Shown: positions 3,906 to 37,748 of the stretch, one piece after another
Layout: each line of letters starts with the position of its first letter
Position numbering within the stretch: position 1 is the first letter of the stretch
DNA from: Schmidtea polychroa
Taxonomy: Eukaryota
Length of the DNA stretch: 64,000 nucleotides
Direction of reading: 5' to 3'
Assembly (NCBI GenBank): GCA_044892525.1
Contig: CM097886.1
Location: 66,464,001-66,528,000 of the forward strand
Made by a program: the position numbers and the translations under genes
The notes under the pieces: generated by a model
Told to the model about the DNA's origin: nothing
The model's database searches: none
Seen by the model: only the letters and a program-made list of their open reading frames with translations

Positions 3906-4667
3906 ATGGCTACATCGTCCAACAACGCCAAAGAACTTCGCCCGTGTTTTTCTTGTGCGGACAAGAACGCGGATATCGCCCAACTCCACTTATATATCGG
4001 GGCTCTCAAAAAGAGAATTGATCTCTATGAAGGAACGTGGTTCTCCCCGCCACAAATGAAAGAGGAACGCAAGAAAATTCTCCGATTAGAGCATTGCAGG
4101 GACAGCCTGCTAGAGGAAAGCCGTTGTCAGCGGCTCACCATCAAAGCACAGTCAGAAGCCCTCCATAAGGTATATACGGAGGCAGAATTGGCTAAGCGGG
4201 TGCGAGAATTCCCCCTTCTGGATGGGACGAATGTCTTTCCTCGTCACCACCCGTCTCCTACATCTTCCGGCTCGCACTGCCAGGGGCACGGCTCACAACT
4301 GCCGCCCATTCCACCCCCGGTGTTGTCATGTCACCAGCCAAAGATAGGTGGACCTACTGATCCCATCGTAGCTCCAATCTTGGTAGCACCAATCGGTACC
4401 ACGAACACCGAAAAACCCCCGACTACCCGCAAACGGAAACGGCCAACTCGAGCCGAGAAGAACCAAAAACGCCGAGATGCGATGACAGCACTCGAGACGT
4501 CCTTATCGGCGGCGAAATCAAAAATCCAAGAGATAACGTCCTCCCATTCAATCCCCTCAAAGGAAGTCTTCCGCATTGTTCCAGCTGAGGGCATCAAATA
4601 CATTGTAGATAGCCGATTACCGGTCGACATAGATGAGATACTGGCCGATGGGGATAACTTTGTTTAA
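3906..4667 (+). CDS. LTR-encoded orphan protein (253 aa; N-terminal CxxC plus helical region, Pro-rich middle, basic NLS-like RKRKR)
   Basis: ATG-initiated ORF with GC-richer coding-like composition, immediately preceded by an acceptor-like TTTTCTAG and followed by AATAAA at 4798. Confidence 0.7.
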   Translation: MATSSNNAKELRPCFSCADKNADIAQLHLYIGALKKRIDLYEGTWFSPPQMKEERKKILRLEHCRDSLLEESRCQRLTIKAQSEALHKVYTEAELAKRVREFPLLDGTNVFPRHHPSPTSSGSHCQGHGSQLPPIPPPVLSCHQPKIGGPTDPIVAPILVAPIGTTNTEKPPTTRKRKRPTRAEKNQKRRDAMTALETSLSAAKSKIQEITSSHSIPSKEVFRIVPAEGIKYIVDSRLPVDIDEILADGDNFV

Positions 4668-4797
4668 TGTGATGTAAAATTGAGCTTGATTTCCTCTTCA
4701 TTGAGTTGTAAATTATCTCGTGAATGTTGCTAATGTTATATCTTTTTGACTGTTGTTGATCTGTTAGTAGTAATGATATTTTTATCGTTTCAGTGTC

Positions 4798-4803
4798 AAT
4801 AAA
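4798..4803 (+). terminator. Candidate LTR polyadenylation signal (copy at 31173-31178)
   Basis: AATAAA followed by a T/GT-rich tract about 400 bp before the LTR end, a plausible R/U5 position. The hexamer is common in this AT-rich DNA. Confidence 0.45.
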
Positions 4804-5221
4804 ATTTTCTGTTTGATTTTAGTTTTGTCGAGCTTTCATATATTTGTTTGTGCAATTAGAGTAGATGAGATAATGCTGCGGAATGAAGATAATTAAGGTT
4901 GAAGGTTGTTCCTTTGGACCAGGATCAGACCGAGTGACACGCATGTATATGGGTAAGTCCTTCTAAGGCACCGTGGGACCCGAACTGAGAAAGGGTTAGG
5001 AGTAGTCCTAAGGCAGGGGCTCACCTGCTAACCTTTTCCGACCCGTGTGAGCAGCACCAACATGGAACATCACCATGGGCTCATATGTGGGAATATGCAA
5101 TCAATCATTTGGAGTATGTGTAAAAAATGTATAACGGAGCCATGATGCTTGATAGGTGTGATGGAAAGGCATGTATAATTTTTTTTTTTTTTTTCTTCTC
5201 CACATACGCCAACATGATTTT

Positions 5222-6741: not shown

Positions 6742-7175
6742 ATTAAGGCCGAGCTGTTGAAAAGTCCAGCCGGTCAGGGAAATTGAAACTGAGCTGTGAA
6801 AAGTCCAGCCAGTCGGAGATATTAAGGCCGAGCTGTTGAAAAGTCCAGCCGGTCAGGAAAAATTAAAACTGAGCTGTGAAAAGCCCAGCCAGTCGGAGAT
6901 ATTAAGGCCGAGCTGTTGAAAAGTCCAGCCGGTCAGGAAAAATTAAAACTGAGCTGTGAAAAGTCCAGCCAGTCGGAGATATTAAGGCCGAGCTGTTGAA
7001 AAGTCCAGCCGGTCAGGAAAAATTAAAACTGAGCTGTGAAAAGTCCAGCCAGTTCGGAGATGAAGAAGATTGAGCTGTTGAATAGTGCCAGCCAGTCGTA
7101 AGATCGAGTTGTTGAATAGTCCAACCGGTCAGGAGAAGAAGATTGAGCTGTTGAAAAGTGCCAGCCAGTCGTAAA
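6742..7175 (+). repeat. Tandem array in the element leader: four 79-80 bp units, each a dimer of ~40-bp subunits, plus degenerate subunits
   Basis: Units start at 6742, 6821, 6901 and 6981; the core GAGCTGT(T)GAAAAGTCCAGCC(A/G)GTC recurs about 11 times. Confidence 0.92.
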
Positions 7176-8401
7176 GGCCTAAAGTAATAGTGAGATAGCA
7201 TTCAAGCTACAAGTTGATAACATTTAAATTACTAGTGAGATGGAATATTAAAGCTAGCTAGAAGCAAAGTGAGTTTGAAATATGGTATTTGAATTTAGAA
7301 AGGATTAAACGAGCTCGTGGGAGGTAATAATGAAATTTTTTTTTTTTGTGAGAAAGAGAAACTGAAAAGGAAAATGAATTAAAAAGATAATGAAAATAAA
7401 GAATAAGTGAGAATAAATGATGAGTAAAAGAGGAAGGTGATTAATTAATTAAAAGGGATCCCAGATAAGTAGACAAAGTTCTACAGAATTTTTTGGTTTA
7501 AACCGGTTAAACGAATTTTGTTTTGGTTACAGAGTAGAACCAAATAAGGGGAAACAGAGATGAAAGATTAAGTAAAATAGCGGAACCGCGTAAAAGGATT
7601 AAGAAAATAGGGGAGGTAATAAGCAGTAACTGACAACGACCTATCGATATTATAAATGCTAACTATAGATAATTTATACGACTATATAGATAATTGTTAC
7701 TACCCCAAATAGATAATTTAAAATCGACGAAAAATATGGGTTGATGGGTAATTATATTCCGCGAAGAAGTGTATGAGGGGAAATGAAGAGAAGTATAACA
7801 GAGGCCCTAAAACGGTGTCTGTGCTTGAATGTGGCAAAAAGGAATGATTGATTCGTGTAAGCAAAGGCAACACGATATCATATTTTCATTGTAGACATCA
7901 ATCCAACCAAGTCAATTCAGAACCAGCTCAAGAGGAATCCAGAGAATATACAAACAACCCAGGAAAAGCAATTCAGAACCCGCACAAAGGAAGACAATAT
8001 CAGAACCGAACTCGACCAATTCAGCAGACGCTAACCGTAGAAAATCCACGTGAAAAGACAGGAAAGAGTAAGAAAGAAACACGGATAAACCCAACCTTAG
8101 ATCTTCAAGTAAGCCAGGAGACGTATTATTTTCAGGAGACGAATTAGATCAACTCAAAAGAGGACGATCATTTAGGCAGCAGAGAGGAATATCACAAGGA
8201 GCAAAAAGACCCCACAAAACACCGATATACGATCAAGAAAACCCCACAGCCGGACATACGCCCAGTCGATCAAGAAGTAGAGAAAGTCTATCCGATATAA
8301 CAAACAACCTAACCGGGTCAACGGAAGAATTATCCGTCCATAGTTTAGCTACATCACTAGAAAATTTAAAAGAAATAATAGCATTTCAAGAACCAATCAA
8401 G

Positions 8402-11400
8402 ATGAATGTAGCAAAAACCGACGAATATAAAGAAAAATTTAGAGGCGAACCGTTCAACGGGAATGCGAACAAGTTGGCAACGTTCATAACCAATTTTGAA
8501 GTCTATATCGATGTGTGTGGATGGACATCCGAAGCAATTAGTAAACGAATGCCTCTGTTTTTGTGCGATAGCGCACTCGAAGTGTATCTGGAAGCAAAAG
8601 AAAGAAATACGAAATTAGACAATTGGGAAAACATCAAAACATTTTTGAGAAAAACATTCGGAGCCAGCAAACCGATAAATCAAGCGTTAGGTGAACTGGC
8701 AAGTAGAAAACAAAGAGCAAACGAGTCAATTACGTTATACGCAAGTGAATTACGAAGATTGGCAAAGAAGGCCATGAACGGAAACTTGCCGGAGGAAAAC
8801 CTAATTGGGTACTTCATAGAAGGACTACGCCGAGAAGAGGTAAGGGCCTCGGTGGGATGTCAAATGTGTAAAACACTAGAGGAAGCTATAGATTGGGCCA
8901 CAAGATGCGAACTACACCTCCCGGCACAAATGAATGTCATGCAAGAGGAAGGAAGAATCGCAACAGCAGCGGTGAAAACGGAAAATGGAGATAACAATAA
9001 TCATGAACCAAAGATGAATCAGTTTATACCAGGTGCGCATCAAATTTTCAAACCACCACAAGGACGATCAAACGGGAATAACAGTGAACGCAACAACTCG
9101 AACAATGGGAACAACTTTAATAATCGACGAAATATGAACGATAACAAACAATGCCGAACATGCGGTAAACCAGGACATTGGGATAGAGATTGTTACCGAA
9201 ACGCAAATTGCAATAGGTGTGGACGACGAGGACACACGGAAAATATATGCCAATCGAGAGGATGTTTTAACTGCGGGCAACCAGGTCATATCTCAAGAGA
9301 CTGTCGAGAAAGGAGCCAACAGCAACGACCACCACAGCGAAATAATAACTATGCACCAAATCCGCAACGACAAAGTAATCCTAGTGAGGGAAAGCAAATG
9401 AATGTGATGCAAGAAATTTCACAAATGAAGCAGATGATGCAACAAATGATGAGACCGAGACAAGAGCAAGTACCACAACCAACCCAGAATATACGCATGA
9501 TGAGAAGCACCGAGAATCTTAACAATTATGAAGTGCAACAACATGCACAAGAATGGCAAAGACTACAAGCTGAAGAAGAAAGGATAAAAAGAGAGCGAAT
9601 TCAGCAGCGACAAGAACAACCACTACGAATAAATATGATGAGGATGGTAAAGGAGATAAAGGAGCAATATTGTTACAATTACGGTAAAAATCCAAGAGTT
9701 GTACCTATGAGCGAACCAGAGAAACCGAAAGAAACAATTCCAGCAGCAAAAAAGGAAAATTCAACAACATCGCTAAAAGGAAATCAGAGAATTCAGAAAA
9801 TATTTTGGAAAAAGATAAAAGATAAAATCGAAAGAGAAAATGAGCAAACAAAAACAGAAGCAGAAGCAGAAAATAACGAAAATGGAAAACAGATCAATCA
9901 TCTAAAGCATAATATGATACGAGAATTAGACTCAGAGGAGCTAACGATACTCGAGAACAAAAAGTTAAAGAAGGTACCAAGAATGAGAAATTTACGAATT
10001 AATATGATGAGGACAACAAAGAAGGTGTTGTCAACAGATGACGATGAGGATTATGTGAGTAGCCTTGGTGGAGAAATGTTACAGTTAAATGAAAATATCG
10101 ACCAACTAAGAGAAAAGATCGGAGCAGATGAGGATGAAAGAGAAAGCGACGTGACAAGCGAAAGCGAAGACGAGAATATCGAAATGAAATTGAGAAAAGA
10201 AAGAGAAGAAGCGATAAAACAAGTAAAGGAAATACTTCCAGTGGTAGTAAGAAACCAGGAGTTCATCGACCTTATACCATATAAACGCTTCTTACAAAAG
10301 ATAATGAAACTAGAAAGAAACGAAAAAGATCTAATACCAAACGAGGAAAAAGCGATAATAAAGAAGTATATGGAAAAAATGAAACAAGCGGAGACAACAC
10401 GGTATGTAATAAAAATCGGAACGAGTAAAGGGCTCGAGAGAATATGGATAAAAAGCACAGTCACAGACGACCTTTTCGATTGGATAAGAGAACATTTGGG
10501 CAGCTCGAGAAAGAAAGAGTATTTATATCAATATCAAGGAGAACAAATTAAGCCAGACATGCACCTAATAGATGCATTGATCTGGCCAGGAGAAACTCAA
10601 ATATTGAAATTGTATAAAGAAAGGCAACCAGCAAATATTCATGAATGGGCTAAAGACGCCAAGGCCGAGTATGACTTTAACCTCAAGCTGAAGCTGGACC
10701 AAATAAAACAATGCACCTTGCGACGAAATCTAGATAAATTAATCAAACAAATTCAAGAACAAGTCGAAGATAACTGGGATTTACTCATAGCAAGACGAAC
10801 TCCAGACATGCATGAACTAATGAGCCGATTACGAGATACAGAATTGCTCAGGATGAGCGATTGGAGAACCATAAATTTGATCCACAAATATGGAAGGTTG
10901 AAAGAAACGCAACCGCAGAAATTAGAAATAACCATATGGTTACCAAACGAGGAGAAACGACGAATAAAGATGAGTAATCAGAGTACGGTGGATGACTTAG
11001 TAACCAAGATAAACCAAGAGATAACGGAAAAAGTACGAAGCGAGAGTAGCGACGGGATGATAGATGACGTAGTCATGATGTACGATAAAATAATATTACG
11101 GGCCGAAGACGACACCTCGCTAAGCGAAATGGGAATGTGGGATAATCATCAAATCATCAGAATATTGCCCATGGACGAATTCCGAACAAGAGATATAACA
11201 TACCAGAAAGAAATACGAGACAGGATGAAAACGCTATATCAAAAATCAGTAGAGATAATTGAAATTCATCAACAGTGGCTAAAAGAAAAAGAGCTTCAAG
11301 GAAAAATAAAGAAACTAAGTGTTAGATCCTGCAGACGAACCCCATGGGAAAGGACGTGGAATGCGGAAAACAAAGAATGGGAAATCAGGAAAGGGATTTT

Positions 11401-12007
11401 CGTGGAAACAGACATTGGTGAGATAGAAAGCGAATCAGAAGAAGAGGAAGATGAACCTCCAAAATACGAAGAGGACGAAATAGAATCGACATCGGACGAC
11501 GAAAGCGAAACGGATGTTACATCAGAAAGTGAAACGGAAACCAGACATATTCATGCGATGAGAAAGAAAGAACGCGAATATGCCGATATGGACAGCGAAG
11601 AAGCGATGGAAGCTCGAGAACGAGAAGAGAAGGAAAGATATAAACAATTAGGTGATATCTTAGCAACGGGAACAAAAAATCAAAAACGTCAAGTAATAGC
11701 ATTGGCTAACATCATCCTAAAGACATCAGAGAATATCCACAATCTAAGAGAAATGGCGAAAGCGATTGAGGAATACAGACAATATAACGAATGGTACCCA
11801 GAACAGCTAGAACAAATTATTAGGAAATGGAGAAACCAAGAATGGGCACAAGATACCCAGGAAAGGTATCGTATCCGAGTCAAGTATCCCGACAAAAGCA
11901 TTGAGGATACAGAAGTACATCCAACAACAAAGATCAGAGAGTTAAAAAAAGAAATTAGCATACGAAACTCCATTTCACCTACAACTATTCGGAAAATCGT
12001 TGGATGA
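8402..12007 (+). CDS. gag: Gag (Ty3-type capsid, three CCHC zinc knuckles) with a long extension containing ubiquitin-like domains; N-terminal part of a probable single polyprotein
   Basis: Capsid motifs (FNGNANKLATFITNFE..., KQRANESITLYASELRRL, YFIEGL); CX2CX4HX4C knuckles at 9152-9304; UBL-like segments at ~10400-10620, ~10919-11170 and 11864 onward. Confidence 0.93.
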   Translation: MNVAKTDEYKEKFRGEPFNGNANKLATFITNFEVYIDVCGWTSEAISKRMPLFLCDSALEVYLEAKERNTKLDNWENIKTFLRKTFGASKPINQALGELASRKQRANESITLYASELRRLAKKAMNGNLPEENLIGYFIEGLRREEVRASVGCQMCKTLEEAIDWATRCELHLPAQMNVMQEEGRIATAAVKTENGDNNNHEPKMNQFIPGAHQIFKPPQGRSNGNNSERNNSNNGNNFNNRRNMNDNKQCRTCGKPGHWDRDCYRNANCNRCGRRGHTENICQSRGCFNCGQPGHISRDCRERSQQQRPPQRNNNYAPNPQRQSNPSEGKQMNVMQEISQMKQMMQQMMRPRQEQVPQPTQNIRMMRSTENLNNYEVQQHAQEWQRLQAEEERIKRERIQQRQEQPLRINMMRMVKEIKEQYCYNYGKNPRVVPMSEPEKPKETIPAAKKENSTTSLKGNQRIQKIFWKKIKDKIERENEQTKTEAEAENNENGKQINHLKHNMIRELDSEELTILENKKLKKVPRMRNLRINMMRTTKKVLSTDDDEDYVSSLGGEMLQLNENIDQLREKIGADEDERESDVTSESEDENIEMKLRKEREEAIKQVKEILPVVVRNQEFIDLIPYKRFLQKIMKLERNEKDLIPNEEKAIIKKYMEKMKQAETTRYVIKIGTSKGLERIWIKSTVTDDLFDWIREHLGSSRKKEYLYQYQGEQIKPDMHLIDALIWPGETQILKLYKERQPANIHEWAKDAKAEYDFNLKLKLDQIKQCTLRRNLDKLIKQIQEQVEDNWDLLIARRTPDMHELMSRLRDTELLRMSDWRTINLIHKYGRLKETQPQKLEITIWLPNEEKRRIKMSNQSTVDDLVTKINQEITEKVRSESSDGMIDDVVMMYDKIILRAEDDTSLSEMGMWDNHQIIRILPMDEFRTRDITYQKEIRDRMKTLYQKSVEIIEIHQQWLKEKELQGKIKKLSVRSCRRTPWERTWNAENKEWEIRKGIFVETDIGEIESESEEEEDEPPKYEEDEIESTSDDESETDVTSESETETRHIHAMRKKEREYADMDSEEAMEAREREEKERYKQLGDILATGTKNQKRQVIALANIILKTSENIHNLREMAKAIEEYRQYNEWYPEQLEQIIRKWRNQEWAQDTQERYRIRVKYPDKSIEDTEVHPTTKIRELKKEISIRNSISPTTIRKIVG

Positions 12008-15000
12008 TAATGCAGATGTCGGAATAACACCCATGAGATTGGGGGAGATCAATGTATTGACAATGGCAGAAACATTGGGAAAACCGATTAAAAGGAAGAG
12101 CAAATCCAGTAAACCTACGAAAGGTAGCTTGAGTACACCAAGCCCTAACAAAGTGGCAAGTAAAACGAATGAAACCGAGGAAATCGAGGAAATTATATTG
12201 GAAGACAGCGATGAAGGAGCTGGAGAAAGATCACCAATTCTGGTAAGATGGCCGACAGGAGCCGAAATATGGACAACAAGCCAACCGTCAACTAGCTATC
12301 AGCAGCCAAATAAGCTGAGTATCGAGGAGATTATCGATAATACAACAGAAACCGAAACCGACGAACAATTCCAACGACAGAAAGGACCAACGAAAGCAAC
12401 ACCAGAAGGTCAAACGGACAAAATAATAGACGAATGGAACGAATGGCTGAGAAACAACGATAGCTCATTGCCAAGAACGGATAACGAGAGAAACCCGAAT
12501 TATGAAAATACAAGGGAAGCCGGAACAATGATGGAAAAACGGGCAAAAGGGAGACCCAAGAAGCAAGGAGAAAAACCGGAATTTAAAACTAGAGAACAAC
12601 TGAAACAAGAACAAGGACAAGTCAGATTAGAGAAACTGGATAAAATAGTGTGGGATCTAAAAGAGGCCCAGCCAACTATCGAAAGAGGCGAAAAATGGAT
12701 ACGAGAGCTAGTAAAAGATATGCTAATAATAACGAACCCACAATTGCGACGGTTATGGCAACGAAAAGTAGCAAGCGTAGACGCCAGACAACTATGGAAT
12801 ACAATATCCGGAATAATTCCGAAATTAATCAAAGAGAAGACAAAAACCACTAAAACCGATTGGGAAGAGACAAGAAGAGTAATTGAACAATTAACTTTAA
12901 ACGCAAACGACGACGAACATCATTTAGTAGTATTAACGTATCTAATGTACAATTTGATGGGATTAGCAGCGAGGAAAATACCTAACAAACAATTCGCAAA
13001 TCATGTAGAAATGACCGTTACAATCATCGAAAATACAATCGAACCACATATTATCCGCGCCGGTGGGTGGAAAAGACTCATACAAGCGCCACGAAAAAAC
13101 GAGCAAGAGAGATCAATGCAAATTCGGTTGAAGAAATTACTAAACAAGCTAGAATGGGAATTGCCATTGAAAGACCCAGCCAGCAGAAAAGCGTCGATTA
13201 ATTCACTAATGATGACCATGATGATATGGATGCTCTGCACCAGTGGAGCCGCGGGATTTACTATTTACGACTGTGACAATTCGATAATAGGAGAAAGATA
13301 CTCCCTGAGAGATATAGAGGAATGTAGACAGGCGTCTCCGAATAAATTAGATATAGTAAAGAAGAAAGTCTCCTATCACGTATACCAAGAATCAGATTTC
13401 ATTAGAACGCAAGCTAGAGAATGCGTAGTATCGAAGAAAGTGTTGGCATATTACTGTGGACAATACTCATATTCAACCCTCATATTACCTGGATTAGATA
13501 AAGAAATAGTACCTATACAACGGGAAGACTGTAAAGAGCTTTTTAGAACCGGAGCGATGAGAATCAGGGATGGAGTAACAATACACGGACAAAGCGGAAT
13601 GATCAAGACAGAAAGTATCTATGTCGCCGGACGAGTAAAATCAACGGATGGATCATGTAACGGAGGCACATATACGATCAGAGGAGAGGTGATATCAGGA
13701 GTAGTAGTAATTGAGTCCTACACAGTGGAGTTGAAGGAATACGAAGCACAATTCGACGCAAACAACTATCAAATGAAAACCAACCCAGCATGCAGAGCTA
13801 CGGAAAACGTGTGTAGAACGGGGATTTCGACTATAATATATGAAGCTAACACCCAAAAATGCCGACTCCAATTGTTAAAAAGTGCTCTATTCAATGAAGT
13901 AAAAGGAGAAATTTACGAAAACGAGGATGACGATGAAGAGAATGGAAACGTAAGGATGCGAAATGGGAAACCAGTTCCGCCATCCCCCAAAGAAAAGAGA
14001 CTCACAACCCAAAAAACACCAACGGCATTAATTACCGATGATCCAGACATCGGCATGAGATTCATTAGAGAAAAAGAGACCACCAAATGTGACAGTATAG
14101 TATACCGGACGAACTACGCAGGTATCTACATGTCAAGGCAAGTAATAGACCGAGCAGTGGGAAAGGTAGCAACGGAGGACGTAAAATTGTACCTGTATGC
14201 CAATAATAAGATGGACTTCTTGTTCCACCGAGGACAAACGACAATGCAAAAAGTGTATTACGATCTTATACAAAATGACTGTTCATTGAATAAAGAGATA
14301 CTAAAAACAAAATTAGCCATCGCAATAACACACCCAGATAACACAATGCCATCACTCCCGTTACCGGATGGACATTTTGGTAGAATGGTGGGAGAGGTAA
14401 TGTATACATATGCATGTACCAAGACATTTGCGCGACTGCCAAGAAAGCCCACAATTCCACCAGGGAAATGCGCAAACGAGTTGGAAATTAGTTACAAAGG
14501 GCGAAACAGATTCGTTCAACCCGTCACTCGAATCATGAACCCAATTGGATTTTATCCGAACACCTTTAACTGTTCAAATGCATACGGACCGTTATATGAA
14601 AAACCCGATGGGAAATGGATAATGTTACCAGTAAAAACCGAAGTACAAGAGCCTAAAAAGTTTGGACTAATAGAACTCGCAACAGAACAAGATTTCAAAC
14701 CAATTGATGTGTCAAAAGCAGGTATGTACTCACCAGAGGATTTAGAAACGGCACGATTAAACGTATTATTCCCAGCAAGACGGGAATCCATTCTATCGAA
14801 TATGGTTACCATAACTGGGGGAACGAATTTCCAGTCAGGCCCCAATTACGAACTATTATTGTCACCTGATCATTTTCAACAAGCCACGTCAAACATGATG
14901 AAAGCAATGTGGGGAAGATTTCTAGTGTTCGGTCAAATGATGGCAGGAATATTGGGAATCATTCTTATTATCCAGATAGTTAGAGTAATATTGACTCAAA

Positions 15001-18000
15001 TGTTAGCGTGTTTTGATATCTATAAGAGAGAAAAGAAGGTAAATTGGAAATTGATAGTAGGCTTTCTACCATTTTTGGCAAAAACAATGGTGTTGCACGG
15101 TCATTCTAAAGACATACATAGAATAAAACGATTGATCAAAATACTGACAAAAATAAAAGGAACTGACGAGGAAGTCGGTAGACGATTTCGGAAAACAATG
15201 TATGATGAAGCAACAAGGACGCAACTGAAAAAGAACAAACCAAAATTCTTAGACAGATTTAGGAATCGATCAAACAGCAGCGATAGTGATGATGACGACA
15301 ACGGGAATGACAAATACCCATATCCAAGTAGAAACCCGAATGAAAAGCCAATAGAAACAGCACCATATTGGGAGAAAGAAAAAACAAATACCTGGATAGC
15401 CAACGGAAGTTATATACCACCAGATATCGTTGGACAACAAACAGCTTTGACCATGACACAAAATATGTATCCACAGTTACCAAGTCAACCAGGGATGAAC
15501 TATATGCCGACCCGAAGAACGAAAAGTGTAGACCAAGCGGACGACGTAAGAACGATAGCAGTGATGAGTTCACCAGGAGGTGCGGCAGTAACAGTCATGA
15601 TCCAAATCAACGGGAAAGAGACAAGCGCCATGATAGATACCGGAGCAAACGTATCAGCAATAGCAATAAACCAAATACCCAGTAAATGTTGGAAAGATAT
15701 CGAACAAACAACTATCCATATTATTGCATGCAGTAAAGAAACCGTCGACGTAGTAGGAAGATGGTGGACTACGTTACGATATCAGGATAACGAAATTGAA
15801 ACGTATCTAGCGGTGATACCCAAACTGAGTGAACCATGTATAATCGGAACGGATTTAATGCCGGAATTGTTTAAGGAAGTAGTAATCGATTTAACAACAA
15901 TGTGTCTAAAAGACAAAATGGGTAGAATATGCAAGATGAACGCAATAATTAGATGTCCGGAGAAAATAATTGTACCCGCAAAATCACAGATGATATGTCA
16001 AATAAAAGTGGATGCAGGAATGGAAGGAGAAGTCATTTTTGAGCCAAGCAAATCATTCGAAAAACGACGAGAATTACCATTAGCAAGAGAAATAATAACA
16101 ATAAATGAAGACGGGGAAATACCAATTAACATCACAAATTTCGAGGAAGAAGACAAGATCATATATGAAAATGAAAGATTGGGTAGATTGACACCCATGA
16201 TAGACATCGAATTACCAAAAATCATCAACGAAACAACGAAAGCTGACGAATTATGGATAATTGACAGCACCTTGCTAACGGAAAAAGAAAAGGAAAGACT
16301 TCAACAATTATTGATAGAATATAAAGATATATTCGCAATTTCGGATTTGGATTTGGGAGCATGCGATGTTACATTACACGCAATACCATTAATAGACGAA
16401 ACTCCAATCGCACTACGTCCATACAAACTAGCAGAGAAGCAAAAAGAGATAGCCGAAGCTGAAGTACAAAAAATGCTAGATGCACAAGTGATCGAACCAA
16501 GTTGTTCGCCATGGCAATTTCCAGTAGTCATGGTGAAGAAAAAAGACGGTACTCAGAGATTCTGTATCGATTATCGGAAATTAAATGCAGTAACAAAAAG
16601 AGACACATACCCGTTACCAGACATCAATGAGATGTTACTTATGTTACAGGGGGCCGCATATTTTACATCTTTAGATCTGAAAAGTGGATATTGGCAGATC
16701 AAAGTCAAGGAGGAAGACAAAGAGAAAACAGCATTCACATTGGGCCGAGATCTATACCAATTCAGGAAAATGCCGTTCGGACTGACCAATGCCCCAGCAT
16801 CATTCCAGAGATGTATGAATTTTGTCACACACGGGATCAAGCAGTGTATGGTATATATTGATGATTTATTAATATATTCAGCAACTTTCGAACAACATTT
16901 GGAAGATATCAGAAACGTGTTCGTTCGATTACGACAATGGAAACTGAAACTTAAACCATCCAAATGTGATTGGGCAAAAGAAAAGGTTACGTTCTTAGGA
17001 CACATAGTGTCAGCAAAAGGCAAAGAACCAGATCCAAGAAACATAGAAAAAATAAAAACATGTCCAGCACCAAAAACTGTCACCCAAGTTCAAGAATTTC
17101 TCGGATTATGCGGATATTATCGAAAATTCATCAAAAACTATGCAGGTATTGCGAAACCAATACAGGAATTAGTGAAAAAGGATATTTCATTTATTTGGAG
17201 TGCAGAACAACAAAAAGCGTTTGAGACATTGCGCGATAAATTAATCGAAGCCCCAATACTAGTACATCCTGATTTCAAGAAACCGTTCTTATTAGCAACA
17301 GATGCAAGTGGATATGCAGCCGGAGCAATATTGGGACAACTCGACGAAGAAGGAAAAGAAAGAGTGATTGGATACTACAGTAGAACGTTTAAAAAGCACG
17401 AGAAAAACTATTCCGTAACCGAGAGAGAAGCGTTAGCAATCATACAAGCAATTAAACATTTTCGATATTTGTTATGGGGACACGAAATATGTATCACCAC
17501 GGATCATCAACCATTAGTATGGCTTGGTCAACACAAAGAAGCTTCAAGTAGATTGATGCGATGGGCAATGCAGTTACAAGAATATTCACCGTTCATAAAA
17601 TTCAAAGCGGGAAGAGCGAATGCCAATGCGGATTGTATGTCCAGATTTATCTTTCCAGATTTAGTAGATCACGAAATGCAACGAATATGTTTGATTGTAG
17701 CAGAAGATTTAGATTTTTGCCAATTACGGAAAGACCAACAAGAGGATACAGAGTTGAAGCAAATCATTGAATATGTGAAAACAGGGAAAGCAGAGGTATA
17801 TGAGAAAGATCAAAAATTGAAGGAGCATATGGATAAACATCGACATCGATATATTATCGAGAAAGATTGGTTATTGATAATGGATGGCGAAAAAAGACTG
17901 ATGTGCATTCCCGAGAATAGACGTAAAGATCTACTAACACAATACCATGACGGAAGACTCGGAGGACATATGTCATCTAAAAAGACGTTGGCACGAATGA

Positions 18001-21000
18001 AACAAAAATATTTTTGGCCTACATTGACCGAGGATGTAACGGAATGGGTGAAAAATTGCATAACTTGCGCAACCAGAAAAAACACGGGAACAAAATGGAA
18101 GGCACCATTAAAGCCAATGCCAGTGCCAGCAGAACCAATGACAATGATATCAATGGACGTAGTCGGTCCACTACCAGAATCAGATAGAGGAAATATATAT
18201 ATATTGGTAATCACAGATTATTTGACAAAATTCCCCGAAGCATTCGCAATGGCAGATCAGAAAGCAAGAACAATCGCAAAAATATTAGTAGAGGAAATAT
18301 GTTGTCGATATGGAACGCCGAAACAAATACTGACGGATCAAGGAACGAATTTCATGAGCGAAATAATGAGCGAAGTCACCAACTACTTCAAGATCGCAAA
18401 ATTAAGAACATCACCGTACCATCCACAAACTAATGGTATGACAGAAAGATTCAATGGAACACTGATTCAAATGTTATCAAATTATGTCGATCGTCATCAA
18501 CGAGACTGGGATGAATATATAAAATTATGTCTAATGGCTTACAGAATGTCGATTCACGCGTCCACAAAGATGAGTCCGTTCAAGTTGATGTACGGCAGAG
18601 AATGCAATATGCCAATGGATTTAGAATATCAGCCACCGATATCACAATACATGGAAATAGACGATTATGTAACCAAGTTCAAGGAAAGAATGCAGGAAAT
18701 CTGGGAAACCGCAGGATTGAATATAAAATTTTATCAAGAAAGTTACAAAGAGTTACATGATAGAAAGAAAAACGTCAAACAGCATACGTTTCAAACAGGC
18801 GATTGGGTGATGATTGAAACACCAGAATTAATTCCAGGAACCACCAAAAAATTACAACGAAACGGTAAAGGGCCGTATGAGATTCTATTCGTTGGAGAAA
18901 CTAATGTAAGAGTACGATTAGTGAACAACCCTTTTACAAGACCAATATACGTAAATGTTGCACGATGTAAGCCAATTCCGAAAACCGCCACCAGTCAGCC
19001 AGAAGGACGTACACTAACGACAAGATCACAAACGTATAGAATAAACATGTTACAGCAAATAAACGAACCAACAGGTAATCGATTAGGGTTACAACCATCA
19101 GAAGCCGAGGAAATCATAAAGGAAGTAAAAGTTAAAATGCCCGGATGGGCAGAAGACAGATTAGATTTTGAGATATTGGGAGGTCTGCTAACAATGATCG
19201 AAAATTATGCAAACCGAGAAAGAACACACCCATTGCTCAGGGTAGTTAAAAGTCAATGGCCTATATTATTCACGATCACAGACCATTACGGAGACACACC
19301 CCTGCACAAGCTTTTAAAGGTGGGTAGTAACGAACAGATATTAGAAACAATTGAAGCATTTCGCGATTGTAACATTTCGACAGATCAAGAAAACAACCAA
19401 GGTTACACTCCACTAATGATAGCAGCCAATCGGGATAAAGCTAAAGATATTATCATCGCATTACTTGAAACTGGGTCAAAGATAACCACACAAGACCACA
19501 ACCAGAAAAATGCACTACATCATGCAATCGAAGGGAAAAGTACGGAAGCCTTCATAATCTTAGTAGATCTATTATCATATGAGGATAATAGAGAGATAGG
19601 AAACATGTATGACGGGCTATTAACTGCAATCAAAGAGAAATTAATAACAATTACTGGAATACTAATTGCATGGAGGAACCCGATCAAAAACGATTATATG
19701 GTAGATATAAACGAAACATTTACCAAAGGAGAAAATACCTTGATGAGAGAAGCGATGAGAGGACATCACCTATTCGAAATTCCAAATCAACTACTACAAC
19801 GTGGCATAAAGTTCTCAAATCACAAAGACGAACAACTAATCAGAAAACGAATTATCAACTTCGAAAAAGCTATATCTCAATTTACCGATAAAGTACAAGT
19901 AAAATTTTGGGAAACCGTGAGTGTATTATATATGATGGAAAATATGAACAACATTCGAGAAACTTACCTAAGCATTATTCAAGTTCTAACGGCAGAGGAA
20001 CGCATTAACAATTCGAACAAGAAAAAGATAAAAAGGAAGAAAGTAAAAGCAAGAGAGTCTGAGGAACAAGTCGATCAACCAATAACCGATATAGCAACAA
20101 CAAGTAAACCAAAGACAATAAACTCCGACCAAGAGATAGTAGTACGTAAGGCTAAAGAAGTATTCTTTGAAGAAATGCAAGATCTATCCGATGAAGCGAT
20201 ACTAGCAAAAATAACCAAAACAGTACACACCTACGCAAGAGATCAGACCACAAATCTAGACATAGGAAAAATAAAAACATTTATACCACTAGCATTCACC
20301 TTACCAACAAAAGACTCAAGAACACCATTACAACAAGCCATTTTAGCAGCAAAAGAAAACAGAGCAATAACCATCATAAGAATCCTTAGAGACTTCGGAG
20401 AAGAATCTAATGCAAAAAATGAACAAGGAGAAACAGCAATGATGTATGCAGCCATAACAAATATACACCCGAAAACATTACATATACTACATCGATCGGG
20501 ATCAAGACTTGACGAAATATCAAACGAAGGAAATTCTGCCATGGATTGGGCAACAATACAACCAAACTTGGAAATGATTAGATTCATTTGTAAAAATGCT
20601 ACAAGAACTGAGGTAGAAAATATCTGTAAAAACACGTCACAGTTCCAATGGAACACGATACGGATGAACTTAGAAGCCATGAAGTTGCTGCTAACATGGA
20701 GAATACCACAAAGCAATAAATATGCAATAAATATAAATGAGTTCTACGAAAACGGAGAAAATGCTATGGTTAAAAATACACTAACAAAAGGAGGAACTCC
20801 GAAAATCATAATGATCGTATTAAACAGGGAAGATCTCAAATTCACGCAGAATCTAAACGAACAAAAGCGAATCGGGAAACATCGTCGGATACAATTAAGA
20901 GAATTAGTGAAAGAATGGAATAGAAAGAGACATGTAGCAACAGGCAGAAAGGAGTTCGAACTCGAAGCAAAATTAGCAAGAAACAGAGTGCTAACGGCAT

Positions 21001-22283
21001 ACCGCAGATTGTTGAATGATATAAATGTCGAGGACGACATTTTAAACGATAGCGGGGGAGATAAAGACGATAAAGACGATAAAGACGACGATAATAATGA
21101 AAAAGGTCGAAACGGGAATAAAGAGAAAGAGAAATCAGAGGAGAATAATCAAGAAAATAACGACGCGAGTAGGAAAAAAGAGGAAAATAACCCGAGAAAC
21201 CGAATGAAGCAAGAAGAAAAGACGAATAGTGGAAAACAGAGGGTATGCCTACTTTTTACCAACAAAGAAATGGAGACAAATATGATGATAATGATACTCG
21301 TACTAACAATGGTGGAAATGATAACAGCCCAGGGAGGAATGAGAACGATAAAAGAAGCCAAAGAAACGGAAAATAAGGACAACAAAGAGGAAGAACTAAA
21401 ACAAGAAAAGAAAAAACAAGTACAAGAGCAGCAATGGGATCTAAAAGAAGAATGGGATTTAAAAGAAAGGTGTATATTAGGAAGATGTATGTCTAGAGCT
21501 TATCAGAGACTAGTGTTAAAAAATGAAGATGCAGAACCAATAACGGAAGTAAGAATACAAGAAGCATACCGAAATCGAGAAGGAAAGAGAATAACGAAAG
21601 TCAAAGGGAAGGAGGTACACCTGGGAAAAGGAGGTGAGGTAGTGATAACGCAACTCCAGCCAAGAAAAGAACACAAAGTCTGCATCGCAAGATTAAGACC
21701 GGGTGAAGACTGTCTACAATATGTAATACAGCAACAACCTCCAAAAGAATACACAATATGCATCTGGAGAAAAGATACAGCGAGAGAATGTCGACGATAC
21801 CCTGGGAAAAGAGGGAAGAAAAGAAAAATCGATGATGAAAAAGATGAGCAAGGAAAACGCAAGAAAAACAGTGAGAAACATCAAGACAATTATGTATCCG
21901 AGGAGGAGATGGAGAAAATACAAAAAATGGCAAAGGAAGGTATGAACGAGGAAATAGCAAGAATACGAGGAATGATGAAAGGAAATGGCAAAGACGGTAA
22001 TCTAAAAAGCACAGAAGCAATATCAACAATAACGAGCAAGGAAAAAGCGGAAATTATAAGCATAAAACAGATGATGTGGATCAGCGGCATAATAATAACA
22101 GGGGCCTTTTTAATCATAACGGGGGGGACAATAAAAATAATCAAAGATAGACGGCATCACGGAGAACTAGAAATGGCCAGAATAAGAAATTTTCAACATC
22201 GTGTAAAACGACCAAGTAATATCAAGCAGGAACAGTGGGTGGAGGCCTGGAATGCTCAGCGCCCTCCAAGCTCACGTATATAG
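11946..22283 (+). CDS. pol: Env-Pol polyprotein (frame open from 11946; ORF track starts at TTG 12000): UBL end, AT-hook, Bcl-2-like, gB-like Env, PR, RT, RNaseH, IN, ankyrin repeats, FN3-like membrane protein
   Basis: Uninterrupted 3,400+ codon frame containing IDTGAN (15636), YIDD (16854), ATDASG...EREALA...TDHQPL, HxxxxxH...CITC, D,D35E ([19 protein letters not shown]) and a GPY motif. Confidence 0.95.
   Translation, partial: [3445 protein letters not shown]
12625..13085 (+). other. Bcl-2-like helical domain within the polyprotein
   Basis: BH2-like [14 protein letters not shown] (GGW at 13062-13070), preceded by a hydrophobic BH1-position helix [12 protein letters not shown] that lacks the NWGR signature. 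Confidence 0.6.
13209..15100 (+). other. env: Envelope glycoprotein of the chuvirus/Jingchuvirales G (herpesvirus gB-like class III fusogen) family, with internal signal peptide and C-terminal TM
   Basis: Signal [22 protein letters not shown], then Cys-rich ectodomain with chuvirus-G-like motifs (YYCG, [59 protein letters not shown]), then [22 protein letters not shown] TM. Confidence 0.85.
15567..15930 (+). other. Retropepsin aspartic protease domain
   Basis: [21 protein letters not shown] ... CIIGTDLM. Confidence 0.93.
16380..17650 (+). other. Reverse transcriptase + RNase H
   Basis: [71 protein letters not shown]. Confidence 0.97.
17690..19020 (+). other. Integrase (HHCC zinc domain, DDE core, GPY/F module)
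   Basis: [10 protein letters not shown]...CITC; [31 protein letters not shown]. Confidence 0.96.
19278..20790 (+). other. Two ankyrin-repeat clusters downstream of integrase (internal duplication)
   Basis: [24 protein letters not shown] (cluster 1); [25 protein letters not shown] (cluster 2). Each cluster is followed by a similar LxxWRxPxxNxYxxxINExxxxGEN motif (19662 and 20685). Confidence 0.85.
21282..22283 (+). other. C-terminal type-I membrane protein module: signal peptide, FN3-like Cys-containing ectodomain, TM, basic tail
   Basis: [17 protein letters not shown] signal; [16 protein letters not shown] and [11 protein letters not shown] resemble the FN3 L-x-P-x-T-x-Y-x-V strand; TM [21 protein letters not shown]. 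Confidence 0.55.
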
Positions 22284-22811: not shown

Positions 22812-22900
22812 ATATAACCTAAAATAGCAATGTAAATAAATGTAAATAAAAATACGAAACTGTACCAGTAACGAATATATGTATATATATAATTATAGAA

Positions 22901-24289
22901 ATGGATAAGCGACAACGAGAAGAATTCAGAGAAATTGTTGAACAAATCAGAAAGTCCACCACAATTCGAATACACAACCATGTAACGTGTGGAATATGCA
23001 AGAGCTTATTAAGAGAACCTCACCAAACCAGATGTGGATGCAGAATGTGCAGAGAATGTGTAGAGGAGATAATAAAGAAGGGACCACAATGGTGCCCAGT
23101 ATGCAAAGAAACAATGATAACAAGTTTGGGAGATACAAACGAAGATAAAGCAGCTGTAAAAGATATGTTGAATGCAAACCTAGGATGTAAAAACACCCCA
23201 TGTAATTGGCGAGGAGTGATATGGGAAGTGAGGCAACATATGGAGCAATGTGAGTATAAAATCAGTCAATGCAAACGTTGCCAAGAAGAGATTAAAGTCA
23301 ATGAAGAAGCAGAACATCAAAGTCGATGCGAAGAAAGACTAGAGAAATGCGAGTATTGCGGAGAAAACGACACCTGGAAGAAACTAATCAGTCAACATCA
23401 CAACATACAAGAGGAGAAAGTGTGCGCAGAATTCAGAGGAGAATGCCCCAACAAATGCGATAAACCCGGAGTAATAAAACTCGCTCAACATCTAAAAGAG
23501 TGTGAAAGAAAAAAGATAACGTGTGTGCTAGGAAAATGGGGATGTCCGAAACAATTACACCGAGGGGAATTACCCCAACATCTAGCAGAAAACGTATCAA
23601 CACACGCGGAAATATGGTCAACGGTATTACAGGAAAACGAAAGGAAAACCGAAAACTTAGAAAGAGAAATAGTCTCGCTAAAAGCGTTGGTAAAAGAACT
23701 ATTGGAAGAAAAGGAAGCATTTGAAGAGGCGAGAACAAGTACAAAGATACAGACAGATCTAGTAGAAACTAGCAACATTATGGTGAAAGAACTACATCAA
23801 AAAGTAAGCGAATTAAACCTCAACGAATTAATACCTACGGCTCCGTACATATGGAAAATAACGGGAGTAAAAGAGAAGATGCAGAGAGCGAGAAATGGAA
23901 AGGATACAACATTACTAAGTCCAGCATTCTACTCATGGAAAAACGGGTATAAAATGAAAATGAAAGCATACCCCAATGGGGATGGAAGTGCATACGGAAC
24001 GCATTTCTCAGTATTCTTCTTGATGTGCAAAGGGCCATACGACGAGTTAATAGAATGGCCATTCAAAGCAAAAATAGACCTCGCAATGATGAACTATCAA
24101 AGTATACACGAACAGAGTTTCCATACAGCGGGAAACCTCGTATGTTACCAAAGGCCCTTGGAAGAAGAAGGACCAGCAACTGGAGCACCAAATTTCATCC
24201 TACAGCGGAAAGTAGAAGACATGACGAGAAACGACACTATATACATAAAAATAGCGGTGAGGCGAGATGGGAAGAGTAGGACTGAGTAG
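22901..24289 (+). CDS. traf: Full-length intronless TRAF-family protein (RING, TRAF zinc fingers, coiled coil, MATH)
   Basis: RING CGICKSLLREPHQTRCGCRMCRECV...CPVC; zinc fingers CKNTPCNWRG..HMEQC; MATH YIWKI...SPAFYSWKNGYKMKMKAYPNGDG..YGTHFSVFF.MCKGPYD.LIEWPF. Confidence 0.95.
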   Translation: MDKRQREEFREIVEQIRKSTTIRIHNHVTCGICKSLLREPHQTRCGCRMCRECVEEIIKKGPQWCPVCKETMITSLGDTNEDKAAVKDMLNANLGCKNTPCNWRGVIWEVRQHMEQCEYKISQCKRCQEEIKVNEEAEHQSRCEERLEKCEYCGENDTWKKLISQHHNIQEEKVCAEFRGECPNKCDKPGVIKLAQHLKECERKKITCVLGKWGCPKQLHRGELPQHLAENVSTHAEIWSTVLQENERKTENLEREIVSLKALVKELLEEKEAFEEARTSTKIQTDLVETSNIMVKELHQKVSELNLNELIPTAPYIWKITGVKEKMQRARNGKDTTLLSPAFYSWKNGYKMKMKAYPNGDGSAYGTHFSVFFLMCKGPYDELIEWPFKAKIDLAMMNYQSIHEQSFHTAGNLVCYQRPLEEEGPATGAPNFILQRKVEDMTRNDTIYIKIAVRRDGKSRTE

Positions 24290-24510
24290 TGAGACGAATA
24301 ATTTTGTATATAATAAATTGTAAATATCGGCGTATATATCCAGTAAAATATTATATAGTAGTGTAGAAAAATTCCCCCCAAATCTACCAAAGGTAAACTT
24401 AAGCGAAAAACTCCTAAAACAACTCCTATAACGAATTATAAAAATAAATAAATAATAAACCAGATATAAGCGTACAACGTTAAGTTAATGATATCGTTAT
24501 TTAGACAAAG

Positions 24511-25548
24511 ATGACACAAGAAGGAACTGAAGCCCCAAACCACGAAACCAAAGTCAATAAAATCCATAAGGGAAAATGGGTCAAAGTAATGTTACAATTG
24601 ACGAACCAGACCCACAACCATCTCGAAGAGGCCAGGGAATACGAGAATAACAAATATCAGTGGTTAGTAAACAATTTAAGAGCCGAAGCAGAAGCATGCA
24701 AAAGAGCCTCTAAGTGGGCATCATTGGAAAACACTCGCCAAGAAGCGCACAGCCACTATTTAAAACAGTTAGTGCAGGAAGCACGGAAACGATTGACGGA
24801 CGAAAACACAAAACGAGAAGCAGAAAAACAAAAGGAAGGAAGGAAAATGAATCACCTATTGGCAGAAGCCCGAAACTGGAAGCGGCAGAACAAAGAGATG
24901 AAAAAAGAAATGAAAGAATTGCCTATGAGATTAGAATACGAAAGCGAACAAGGCAAATGGGAGGAAAATCTGGTCATAAGAGAAGAACTGAAACGGCTCA
25001 GAAAGATTGCGGCCCGAAGCCAAACATGGCAGACCAAAGCCATGGAATTTGAAAGACATCTAGCCATGAAAATCTCCATAAGGGAGCACGAGAATGCCGC
25101 AATGGAAGAACTGATACTTCAACAGTCAGGACGACTCGTGGAACTGGTGAATAAGGTCGCAGAACTAGAACGAGATGTCAACGGATACCAAGGAGCTCTG
25201 GAGCAGAGAAATATGGTACTGGCGGGGAAAAACAAAAAGTTAGAAAACGAAAGGAAAATGTATAACGAAAATCTTAAAAATCTGGAGATAGAGATCAAGA
25301 AATGGGAAAACGGCGAAAAAGCGGAAGAGCTAGAAAAACAGATAGAGGTAAGAGACGATGAAACCAGGTATCTAACATACCTGTTGGACGAGGAACTTAA
25401 CGTGTCAAGAGCACTAAGAGACGAAGTGCAAGAACTTAGAGCGCAGATTCCCCGGTACTACATCCCATTTGATCCCATCGCACTCCAATTACAAACGTCA
25501 GTAGAAAGCGATGAGGGATACGTAGGCCAGGAAGAGACCTTTGTATAA
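24511..25548 (+). CDS. Long coiled-coil accessory protein (345 aa)
   Basis: Uninterrupted ATG ORF, E/K/R/L-rich heptads throughout. Confidence 0.8.
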   Translation: MTQEGTEAPNHETKVNKIHKGKWVKVMLQLTNQTHNHLEEAREYENNKYQWLVNNLRAEAEACKRASKWASLENTRQEAHSHYLKQLVQEARKRLTDENTKREAEKQKEGRKMNHLLAEARNWKRQNKEMKKEMKELPMRLEYESEQGKWEENLVIREELKRLRKIAARSQTWQTKAMEFERHLAMKISIREHENAAMEELILQQSGRLVELVNKVAELERDVNGYQGALEQRNMVLAGKNKKLENERKMYNENLKNLEIEIKKWENGEKAEELEKQIEVRDDETRYLTYLLDEELNVSRALRDEVQELRAQIPRYYIPFDPIALQLQTSVESDEGYVGQEETFV

Positions 25549-25722
25549 AGATAAAAGGAAAGATAAAAAATATAAAAATCGGGACCTGTATCCCAACCAA
25601 AAAAATTAATGGTACAATAAAAGTATGAAAGGGACTGTAACCCTGATTATAAAATAACATATAAATGTATAAGTATAAGCCGCACTGTAGCGCAATTATT
25701 AACTATGTATATATTATAGAAA

Positions 25723-26424
25723 ATGAACACTGAAAACGGACAACCCAGCATAACATCTATAATCGAGTTAGAAGAGGGAGAAATTGAAGTTGATGAAGTG
25801 GAGAGGAAGAAAACCATCAAGGAAGAATTACAAGAAGAGAGACAGGAAAACGAAAGATTAGTTGAAAGGTGGAGAGATAATCGAAAAATGATTAAAGTAT
25901 TGAAAAGAGAATATATCCTGTTAGAAGGAGTAAAGAAAGAAGTAGAGGAAGAAAACGAATGGCTTCACGAGCAAAGAAAGCGAGGGAGAAATTGGGAAAA
26001 GATCGCGGAAGAATTATGGCAGGAGAGGGCCAGTCGAAAGGCCGACGAAGTGATTAGTGACTATTGGAAAACCGAGGCACGGAAACACCAAGAAAGCCTG
26101 AAAGGGTTACAACTCCAACTACACCAAAAACAGAAAGAATGTGAGATAATGAGACGAATGAACAACAAATACCAGGAAATAGACAACGAAGGAGACGGGG
26201 AAAGGGAAAATGATTTTCTACAGATAATGAACCATAGAAACCTCGAAAGAGCAACACAAGAAATAAAAGCACTAAAAGAAAAAATAATAACCCTAAGGCA
26301 ACAGTTAGACGAAAGAGACAAACAATTAAAAGTACTACCCGAATTGAGAAAACGAGTAATAAAAGCAGAAATGAGAGTGATGAGAACATCCGAGAAAACC
26401 CGTAAAAAGAAAACCCGGCAATAA
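25723..26424 (+). CDS. Coiled-coil accessory protein (233 aa) with basic C-terminus
   Basis: Uninterrupted ATG ORF, heptad-rich, ends KTRKKKTRQ. Confidence 0.8.
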   Translation: MNTENGQPSITSIIELEEGEIEVDEVERKKTIKEELQEERQENERLVERWRDNRKMIKVLKREYILLEGVKKEVEEENEWLHEQRKRGRNWEKIAEELWQERASRKADEVISDYWKTEARKHQESLKGLQLQLHQKQKECEIMRRMNNKYQEIDNEGDGERENDFLQIMNHRNLERATQEIKALKEKIITLRQQLDERDKQLKVLPELRKRVIKAEMRVMRTSEKTRKKKTRQ

Positions 26425-26479
26425 TTAAAGATGAATGATCAATGTAAATAATTGTAAATAAAAATTTTCGTATAGTAGT

Positions 26480-27116
26480 ATGTGGTTCGGAGCAACCCTG
26501 GTGACAATAATGATGATAGCGATAAACGGAATACCCATATGGCAGCCAATCCCAACATTCTGGGAGAATCCCGAGAAACAGCAAAACCCGTTAACCAAAC
26601 TGAAAAGCGAAAGAAAGCTCTCCAACAACATCCCGAAACAATGCTGGAACAAAGCCGTCTGGCAAAAACTTCAAATGCAACTCCACCTACAAACCCAAAA
26701 AAATCGAACAGCTCGAAATTCTCTTACAAGAACAAACCACCCAACAATCCTTGAAGGAAATCATCATGAAGAAGGAAGTAAAAGAAAGCCAAGTCTTACT
26801 CTATACTACCATCAGTGAAACCCTTATCATCTGCGCACTAGTCATCTGGAAAGCGTATGATATTCATCGAACATGGAGAAGAAACCAGTCACTATCCGAG
26901 AAACACGAAAGAAAGAACCCACGATCGAAAAATAAACATAAACGAGCAGTACATTTTCAACAACCAAACCCACCCGACCAAATGCAACAAAATCTATCTC
27001 CTGACCAAATGCCTGTTACAATCCAGCTCCCCACGATAACAACTTCAACCAGCCATCCGACCCAGAACTCAACCAACCAAGACAGTAATAACATTCCGAA
27101 CCTTGAGATCATGTGA
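26480..27116 (+). CDS. Probable ~211-aa type-I membrane protein split by a +1 shift at A7 (26697-26703)
   Basis: Frame from ATG 26480 gives signal peptide MWFGATLVTIMMIAING. Removing one A joins it to QKIEQLEILLQEQ...TLIICALVIWKAY (TM) and a Q/P/T-rich tail ending at 27116. Confidence 0.6.
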
Positions 27117-37254: not shown

Positions 37255-37748
37255 TGATTTTACGCACTTTCAATAGTTAACGCCCTAATTAATGCCGCTG
37301 AATTTCGCATGAGAATCAATAAATAAAGTTTTAATTATGACATTAAATTTTTAATGTGCATGAAATCTTTAAATTTTATATGAGCATTAATTTTCATAAA
37401 ATTATGTGTTTTCTCTTCGATTGAATATTAACAATTTATTTATTTTTATAAATATTTTAAATTTATGATATTAAATCATGCTTTAAATTTTGATTTATTT
37501 ATAAATTTATTAAAGTTTTCAAAATTCATTCATTAAAATTATTACTACATGATTTGGTTAACCAAAATTTACTGATATTTATACACATTTACTTTTGTTT
37601 ATTTAAGTTTAAATTTGAAATATTTTTAAAATTTTGAATTAAGATTTTTGTTAATTCTAAATACTATAATTAAGCAGCTTTTATAATTAACGTACTATTT
37701 TATTTTTAAAAGTAATTTATTTATAATTATTCACATATAGAATTTTAC

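Follow-up and report, generated by a model that had tools for sequence, protein, structure and literature searches.

A predicted class III fusogen encoded between Gag and protease in a giant Burro-like Ty3/gypsy element of Schmidtea polychroa

Introduction

How would a retroelement release an envelope protein (Env) that is encoded in the middle of its polyprotein, and what would it use this protein for? The question is raised by a 64,000-nt stretch of the Schmidtea polychroa genome (assembly GCA_044892525.1, contig CM097886.1, positions 66,464,001 to 66,528,000, forward strand), hereafter the window, in whose coordinates all positions are given. A single long terminal repeat (LTR) element of ~30.6 kb spans positions 973–31586. 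A first-pass annotation, made from the letters alone, had described in it a signal-like stretch, a ~550-aa ectodomain with about 14 cysteines and a transmembrane segment, lying 5' of DTG, YIDD and DDE motifs in the same open frame, and had taken them for a chuvirus G/gB-like class III fusogen located between Gag and protease. The arrangement is as described (the frame runs from 11946 to 22283), and profile and structure searches agree with the assignment. At a probability of roughly 0.72, we read Env as a gB/chuvirus-type fusogen that sits between Gag and protease in a frame of ~4,700–4,800 codons, is likely released by host signal peptidase, and would serve as an entry fusogen.

Results

Profile and predicted fold of Env

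The following features, in order along the element, define Env and its surroundings.

8072–12007, + strand: Gag part of the polyprotein, with Retrotrans_gag, CCHC knuckles and weak ubiquitin-like matches, terminating at a frame break that no sibling shares
11946–22283, + strand: 3445-aa stop-free frame with, in order, a Bcl-2-like segment, Env, protease (PR), reverse transcriptase (RT), RNase H (RH), integrase (IN), ankyrin repeats and a second membrane protein
13209–13256, + strand: predicted internal Env signal peptide, a Met-rich hydrophobic stretch with small residues at -3 and -1
13257–14912, + strand: predicted class III fusogen ectodomain of 552 aa, with 14 Cys and one N-glycosylation sequon; predicted mature start at 13257
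13920–14006, + strand: acidic/basic loop of the ectodomain, a length-variable insertion of low model confidence that lacks a furin consensus
14187–14330, + strand: long central helix of the ectodomain (model residues 311–358)
14913–15023, + strand: Env transmembrane anchor, a hydrophobic block followed by ~200 aa of predicted cytosolic tail up to the protease
15594–18425, + strand: PR, RT, RH and IN in Ty3/gypsy order (DTG at 15636, YIDD at 16854, integrase core from ~18130)

Env matches the Pfam family PF24664 (Monjiviricetes fusion glycoprotein) with E 7e-74. The match is not due to chance, since its 249 bits far exceed the cut-off of 27 and none of 14 control genomes was positive in a search with this family. 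A full HMMER scan returned 869 representatives at E ≤ 0.001, of which the closest are long chains and the next are free-standing proteins of ~650 aa. At the level of solved structures, a profile built from 103 Env-family sequences matched herpesvirus gB weakly in the PDB (best E 8e-4). The AlphaFold monomer model of Env has a mean predicted local distance difference test score (pLDDT) of 89.9 and a predicted template modeling score of 0.74, and it shows the elongated beta fusion domain and long central helix of the class III fold. In Foldseek searches with this model, glycoproteins of chu-related viruses rank first among viral models (E 7e-37, template modeling score 0.71), and the PDB matches listed are exclusively herpesvirus gB (best E 2e-13), at a modest template modeling score of 0.43. 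The long central helix is shared with gB at ~10% sequence identity. A signal peptide, a cysteine-bonded ectodomain and a membrane anchor are all present as a sequence pattern. By profile and predicted fold, then, Env is a class III fusogen of the chuvirus G/herpesvirus gB type. Word-seeded protein searches gave no match to Env, a blank that is uninformative owing to length limits, and the ESM Atlas gave no usable match.

A second short hydrophobic block lies ~20 residues past the transmembrane helix (15035–15100) and is conserved across nearly all relatives. It is probably an amphipathic or re-entrant helix; we read it as non-crossing because a second membrane crossing would place Pol in the lumen.

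The first-pass annotation had also proposed the acidic/basic loop at ~13920–14010 as a maturation cleavage site, and here it fared less well. The window's loop contains no R-x-K/R-R motif, the same span has one in 1 of 102 aligned relatives, and the length of the loop varies, so that the conserved, exposed motif of a furin-matured fusogen is missing and we reject the loop as a furin site. The furin linker of gB lies immediately before the central helix, whereas six short strands separate the window's loop from that helix, and the span preceding the helix has no R-x-K/R-R in any of 103 rows. The loop raises the spacing between two invariant cysteines to 60–78 residues in the polyprotein-embedded group, where the median of all rows is 49. 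We read the loop as a surface insertion of this group. A cut at its dibasic KR by a non-furin protease is possible.

Position, frame and selection across copies

A search with the first half of env gave 300 first-look candidates genome-wide. The best 40, which are the window copy and 39 siblings, were scored; all are 99–100% identical, and they represent the youngest copies and no random sample. Env, its transmembrane anchor and PR share a common frame in all 39 siblings, and gag to RNase H forms a single stop-free frame in 32 of them, the remaining 7 having a stop or frameshift at varying sites. The full polyprotein frame is 4,724–4,817 codons from stop to stop, and of the 150 places scored in a protein search near the polyprotein end, 58 (hand count) have a frame that stays open for 4,700 codons or more. 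The earlier proposal that Env is made as part of a Gag-Pol polyprotein is thus supported for the family; in the window copy itself, gag (8072–12007) is out of frame with env-pol.

The break in the window lies within 11946–12007 and is found in none of the 39 siblings. Being private to this copy, it is either a lesion or an error of assembly, and for the same reason we reject a programmed +1 frameshift at the gag/env junction. This break is the one observation in favor of the env segment having entered the window copy alone, by a single insertion from a chuvirus or through chimeric assembly. Dozens of near-identical copies spread over at least five contigs, the same order in other families of the genome and in outside relatives, and coverage of all 30 bins at similar depth by the contigs of run X3 (one of four contig runs mapped to the window, from which strand, level and splicing are not readable) refute that explanation. 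The first-pass annotation had asked whether other copies keep env at this position, and they do.

Integrase DNA was used as a second query, avoiding selection on env, and the best 40 of 762 candidates were scored. Of the 39 other matches, 32 were copies already in the env set. Among the 7 new ones, 5 have a whole env in frame, one (L060) is without its first half, and one is cut by a contig end, giving a whole env in 37 of 38 assessable integrase-picked copies. L060 (G000:C4:556766-566765) carries an internal deletion, across which the beginning of gag runs straight into the latter half of env.

More distant families share the layout to varying degrees. A PF24664 search of the genome gave 2,580 candidates, of which the best 68 were scored and 20 of these fetched; all 20 belong to other families, with an env 35–42% identical to that of the window. 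Env and PR are in one frame at 16 of the 20 loci, and gag to RNase H at 7. Of 15 long top matches from outside the genome, 10 continue from env into a protease within one chain, and 3 have a Gag domain ahead of env. Six relatives (P0001, P0002, P0003, P0004, P0009 and P0019) have at least two aspartyl-protease-like stretches after env, where the window has one.

Variation among the 40 copies is almost entirely silent in the ectodomain: 70 shared variants are synonymous and none is a replacement. The pairwise ratio of nonsynonymous to synonymous polymorphism (pN/pS) of the ectodomain is ~0.005, a value also found in the half of env not used for picking copies, and none of the 14 cysteines varies in any of the 40 copies. 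Elsewhere in the polyprotein the ratio is ~0.05 (Gag core and RT) and 0.03 (integrase). The gag-env-pol layout is real and is held by strong purifying selection.

Signal-peptidase pattern and proposed processing

A hydrophobic core followed by small residues at -3 and -1 is the rule for signal-peptidase sites. We looked for this pattern in 17 polyproteins, comprising the window, two other families and 14 outside relatives. Small residues occupy -3 and -1 of the mature-start motif in 16 of the 17 (background 7%), a hydrophobic core precedes the motif in 15 (background 4%), and the frame upstream of the Env signal is open for 141–1362 residues in every one. The pattern suggests a conserved internal signal-peptidase site within the polyprotein, at which cleavage is likely.

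The signal of the window opens with five in-frame Met codons, and these also suit another route, in which Env or Env-Pol is mostly translated separately from a spliced or subgenomic RNA starting at the Met cluster (13209–13230) and read-through to Pol is the sole reason for keeping the single frame. The env of insect errantiviruses is made from spliced RNA, a precedent for such a route. Four relatives (P0001, P0002, P0003 and P0011) have no Met before the hydrophobic core, the upstream frame is open into env in 32 of 39 copies, and Pol has to be translated through env anyway; we regard separate translation as improbable.

Internal-signal processing, for which flavivirus and alphavirus polyproteins are the model, would run as follows. 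Gag and the Bcl-2-like part would be synthesized in the cytosol, the internal signal would feed the ectodomain into the endoplasmic reticulum (ER), and signal peptidase would cleave ahead of the conserved mature start. The transmembrane helix would then halt transfer. With one signal and one stop-transfer helix, PR-RT-RH-IN would be back in the cytosol, tethered to the Env tail. The signal-peptidase cut would thus separate Gag from Env-Pol, and Pol would remain on the Env tail until the element's protease later frees it. The ectodomain would trimerize and, as a fusogen, mediate the entry of enveloped particles, which may carry the element from cell to cell within the animal.

Alternatively, Env may be kept for an intracellular role, such as anchoring Pol and Gag at ER membranes for assembly or fusing membranes within the cell or across contacts, with no free infectious particle. 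Since env must stay in frame for Pol to be made, stops would be selected against regardless. Planarian germ cells derive from somatic stem cells, so that cell-to-cell spread may need no free virions. Upkeep of an open frame does not account for a pN/pS lower than that of RT and integrase, nor is it what invariant cysteines and a full predicted fusogen fold would lead one to expect, and we consider a purely intracellular role unlikely next to that of an entry fusogen.

A further predicted membrane protein after the ankyrin repeats

The chain ends in a further candidate membrane protein.

21276–22283, + strand: predicted type I membrane protein, the second of the polyprotein and its last part, with a signal (21276–21329), a beta-rich core, a transmembrane segment (22062–22145) and a short tail

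The same pair of hydrophobic blocks occurs at the chain end of P0002, P0007 and P0014 and of another family of the genome (L067). The ratio of nonsynonymous to synonymous substitution rates (dN/dS) of the core is 0.16 against 8 diverged copies, by which measure the protein is under purifying selection. Fibronectin type III (FN3)-like motifs are visible by eye in the window, P0002, P0007 and L067, and suggest an FN3 fold; a search for the Pfam fn3 family found no match in this protein. Its structural model is poor (pLDDT 46) and gave no Foldseek match under E 0.001, and the ESM Atlas gave no usable match. Word-seeded protein searches were also blank, which is uninformative owing to length limits. 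The chain ends in S-R-I in the window and T-R-L in L067, both of which fit a class I PDZ-binding pattern; the ends of P0002 and P0007 do not.

Architecture and class of the element

The remaining features of the element are the following.

973–5214, + strand: 5' LTR with TG...CA ends; the 4-bp target duplication CAGT lies directly before it
12870–13070, + strand: Bcl-2-like segment directly before the Env signal, a weak match (E 0.029) under the Pfam cut-off
19344–20489, + strand: ankyrin repeats, 3' of integrase
22850–24289, + strand: separate TRAF-like open reading frame (ORF) with RING, TRAF zinc finger and MATH domains
27348–31586, + strand: 3' LTR; CAGT lies directly after it

The LTRs, each ~4.24 kb long, are 99.906% identical over 4243 columns with 3 gaps, and the insertion is therefore very young. 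The order PR-RT-RH-IN with gypsy-type RNase H and H2C2 domains, together with the TG...CA ends and the short target duplication, places the element in Ty3/gypsy. The Bcl-2-like match is stronger in the outside relative P0006 (E 0.00096). The TRAF-like ORF has a pN/pS of 0.35 over 15 copies and is shortened in 3 of 14 siblings.

Two coiled-coil-like accessory ORFs (24505–25548 and 25720–26424) are without a useful Pfam match, and a third at ~26460–27116, with hydrophobic stretches, is 200–217 aa long in 12 of 14 siblings and broken in the window copy. Each LTR contains a 253-aa ORF (3906–4667 and 30281–31042) without a Pfam match, and the leader 5' of gag has an 80-bp unit in three tandem copies (6780–7053). 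Outside the element, the window holds a flavin amine-oxidase-like ORF (47455–48618), an FG/Asn-rich ORF that looks nucleoporin-like by eye and has no Pfam match (37716–39170), and an AT-rich tandem array with a 21-bp unit (60852–61512).

Discussion

The first-pass annotation knew of no env reported for planarian Burro elements and left this to be checked. One was in fact reported in 2019, in frame between gag and pol (Arkhipova and Yushenova, 2019; PMC6431247), and gB-like Schmidtea elements followed in 2026 (Chary and Hayashi, 2026; PMC13524379). The gag-env-pol layout is already published, and the window copy is a further case of it.

The passages on Burro/GYPSM1 in PMC6431247 describe giant gypsy-like planarian LTR elements of ~30 kb with multi-kb LTRs, like the element here, and a single ORF of 4,873 aa that compares with the 4,724–4,817 codons we found. 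Common to both are a CCHC Gag, ubiquitin-like and BCL2-like matches, an env in frame between BCL2 and PR, ankyrin repeats and TRAF/MATH cargo. The window element thus answers to the description of Burro (~30 kb, a ~4,800-aa polyprotein, env between the BCL2-like part and PR, ankyrin, TRAF/MATH), its Bcl-2 match being weak. Its TRAF/MATH part is, in contrast to that account, a separate ORF downstream of the polyprotein, and the scanned parts gave no BIR match. The element is young, high-copy and Burro-like, the last by that published description and its Ty3/gypsy membership by domain order and LTRs. In the same passages the Burro env is likened to gypsy Env and to baculovirus and paramyxovirus fusion proteins, with mononegavirus matches in addition, whereas the present tests point to class III; they contain no mention of a second membrane protein or of signal-peptidase processing. 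When transposons are de-silenced by smedwi-2 RNAi, the level of BURRO1 RNA goes up (PMC8532177).

Chary and Hayashi (PMC13524379) describe GAG-ENV-POL 'ancient errantiviruses' with an HSV/gB-type ENV in Nematoda, Bryozoa and Platyhelminthes, with a furin site that is not conserved in every case. Six of these are in Schmidtea mediterranea (Smed_errantivirus_1-6) and share gene order, fusogen class and multi-copy state with the window element. The ectodomain piece of Smed_errantivirus_5 in the supplement is by eye the most alike, also in carrying an acidic/basic insertion where the window's Env has one; the element is listed there with 1 copy, and the sibling family here is far larger. The main text of PMC13524379 uses none of the words 'polyprotein', 'single ORF' and 'in-frame', and it does not discuss how the internal Env is made. 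We found no paper on particles or FN3 cargo of these elements, although supplements may hold such reports.

The G proteins of Jingchuvirales and of Anakin BEL/Pao elements share the Pfam family and best structural match with the window's Env, but are free-standing proteins of ~650 aa with an N-terminal signal, unlike the polyprotein-embedded Env. In a quick Env tree, 15 polyprotein-embedded proteins split from 28 others with a Shimodaira-Hasegawa-like approximate likelihood ratio test (SH-aLRT) support of 98. This argues against recent capture from a sampled chuvirus, as weak evidence, because the rows are the query's own top matches with flanks included.

Several observations weigh against our reading of Env. 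At the level of structure, a single-sequence search of the PDB gave no match to Env, and the resemblance of the model to solved gB is modest. Regarding copies, use of the best-scoring 40 of 300 overstates intactness for the whole family, 92 of the 150 scored places have frames shorter than 4,700 codons, and L060 demonstrates that copies can exist without the first half of env and hence without a whole Env. Of the 17 signals, that of the window ranks among the weakest, and its five Met codons would suit separate translation. Finally, the strong selection demonstrates that the element needs Env in order to spread, but not that this need is one for extracellular infection.

Beyond the accounts in the sections cited from PMC6431247 and PMC13524379, the present analysis adds the very strong purifying selection on the fusogen of young copies and the conserved predicted internal signal-peptidase site.

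In herpesviruses, gB requires gH/gL and a receptor-binding partner. A tentative extension, which we hold to be rather doubtful, is that Burro-type elements are live enveloped flatworm viruses built on a flavivirus-like plan, in which signal peptidase cuts Gag from Env-Pol, no Gag-Pol fusion exists, the enzymes are brought into the particle on the spike, as its cytosolic tail, and the second membrane protein pairs with the fusogen for attachment or cell contact. If the proposed topology is true, the packaging of RT and integrase would have no counterpart among the retroviruses and retrotransposons studied, and a repeat that is very abundant in a group used as a model of regeneration would be a cell-to-cell infectious agent.

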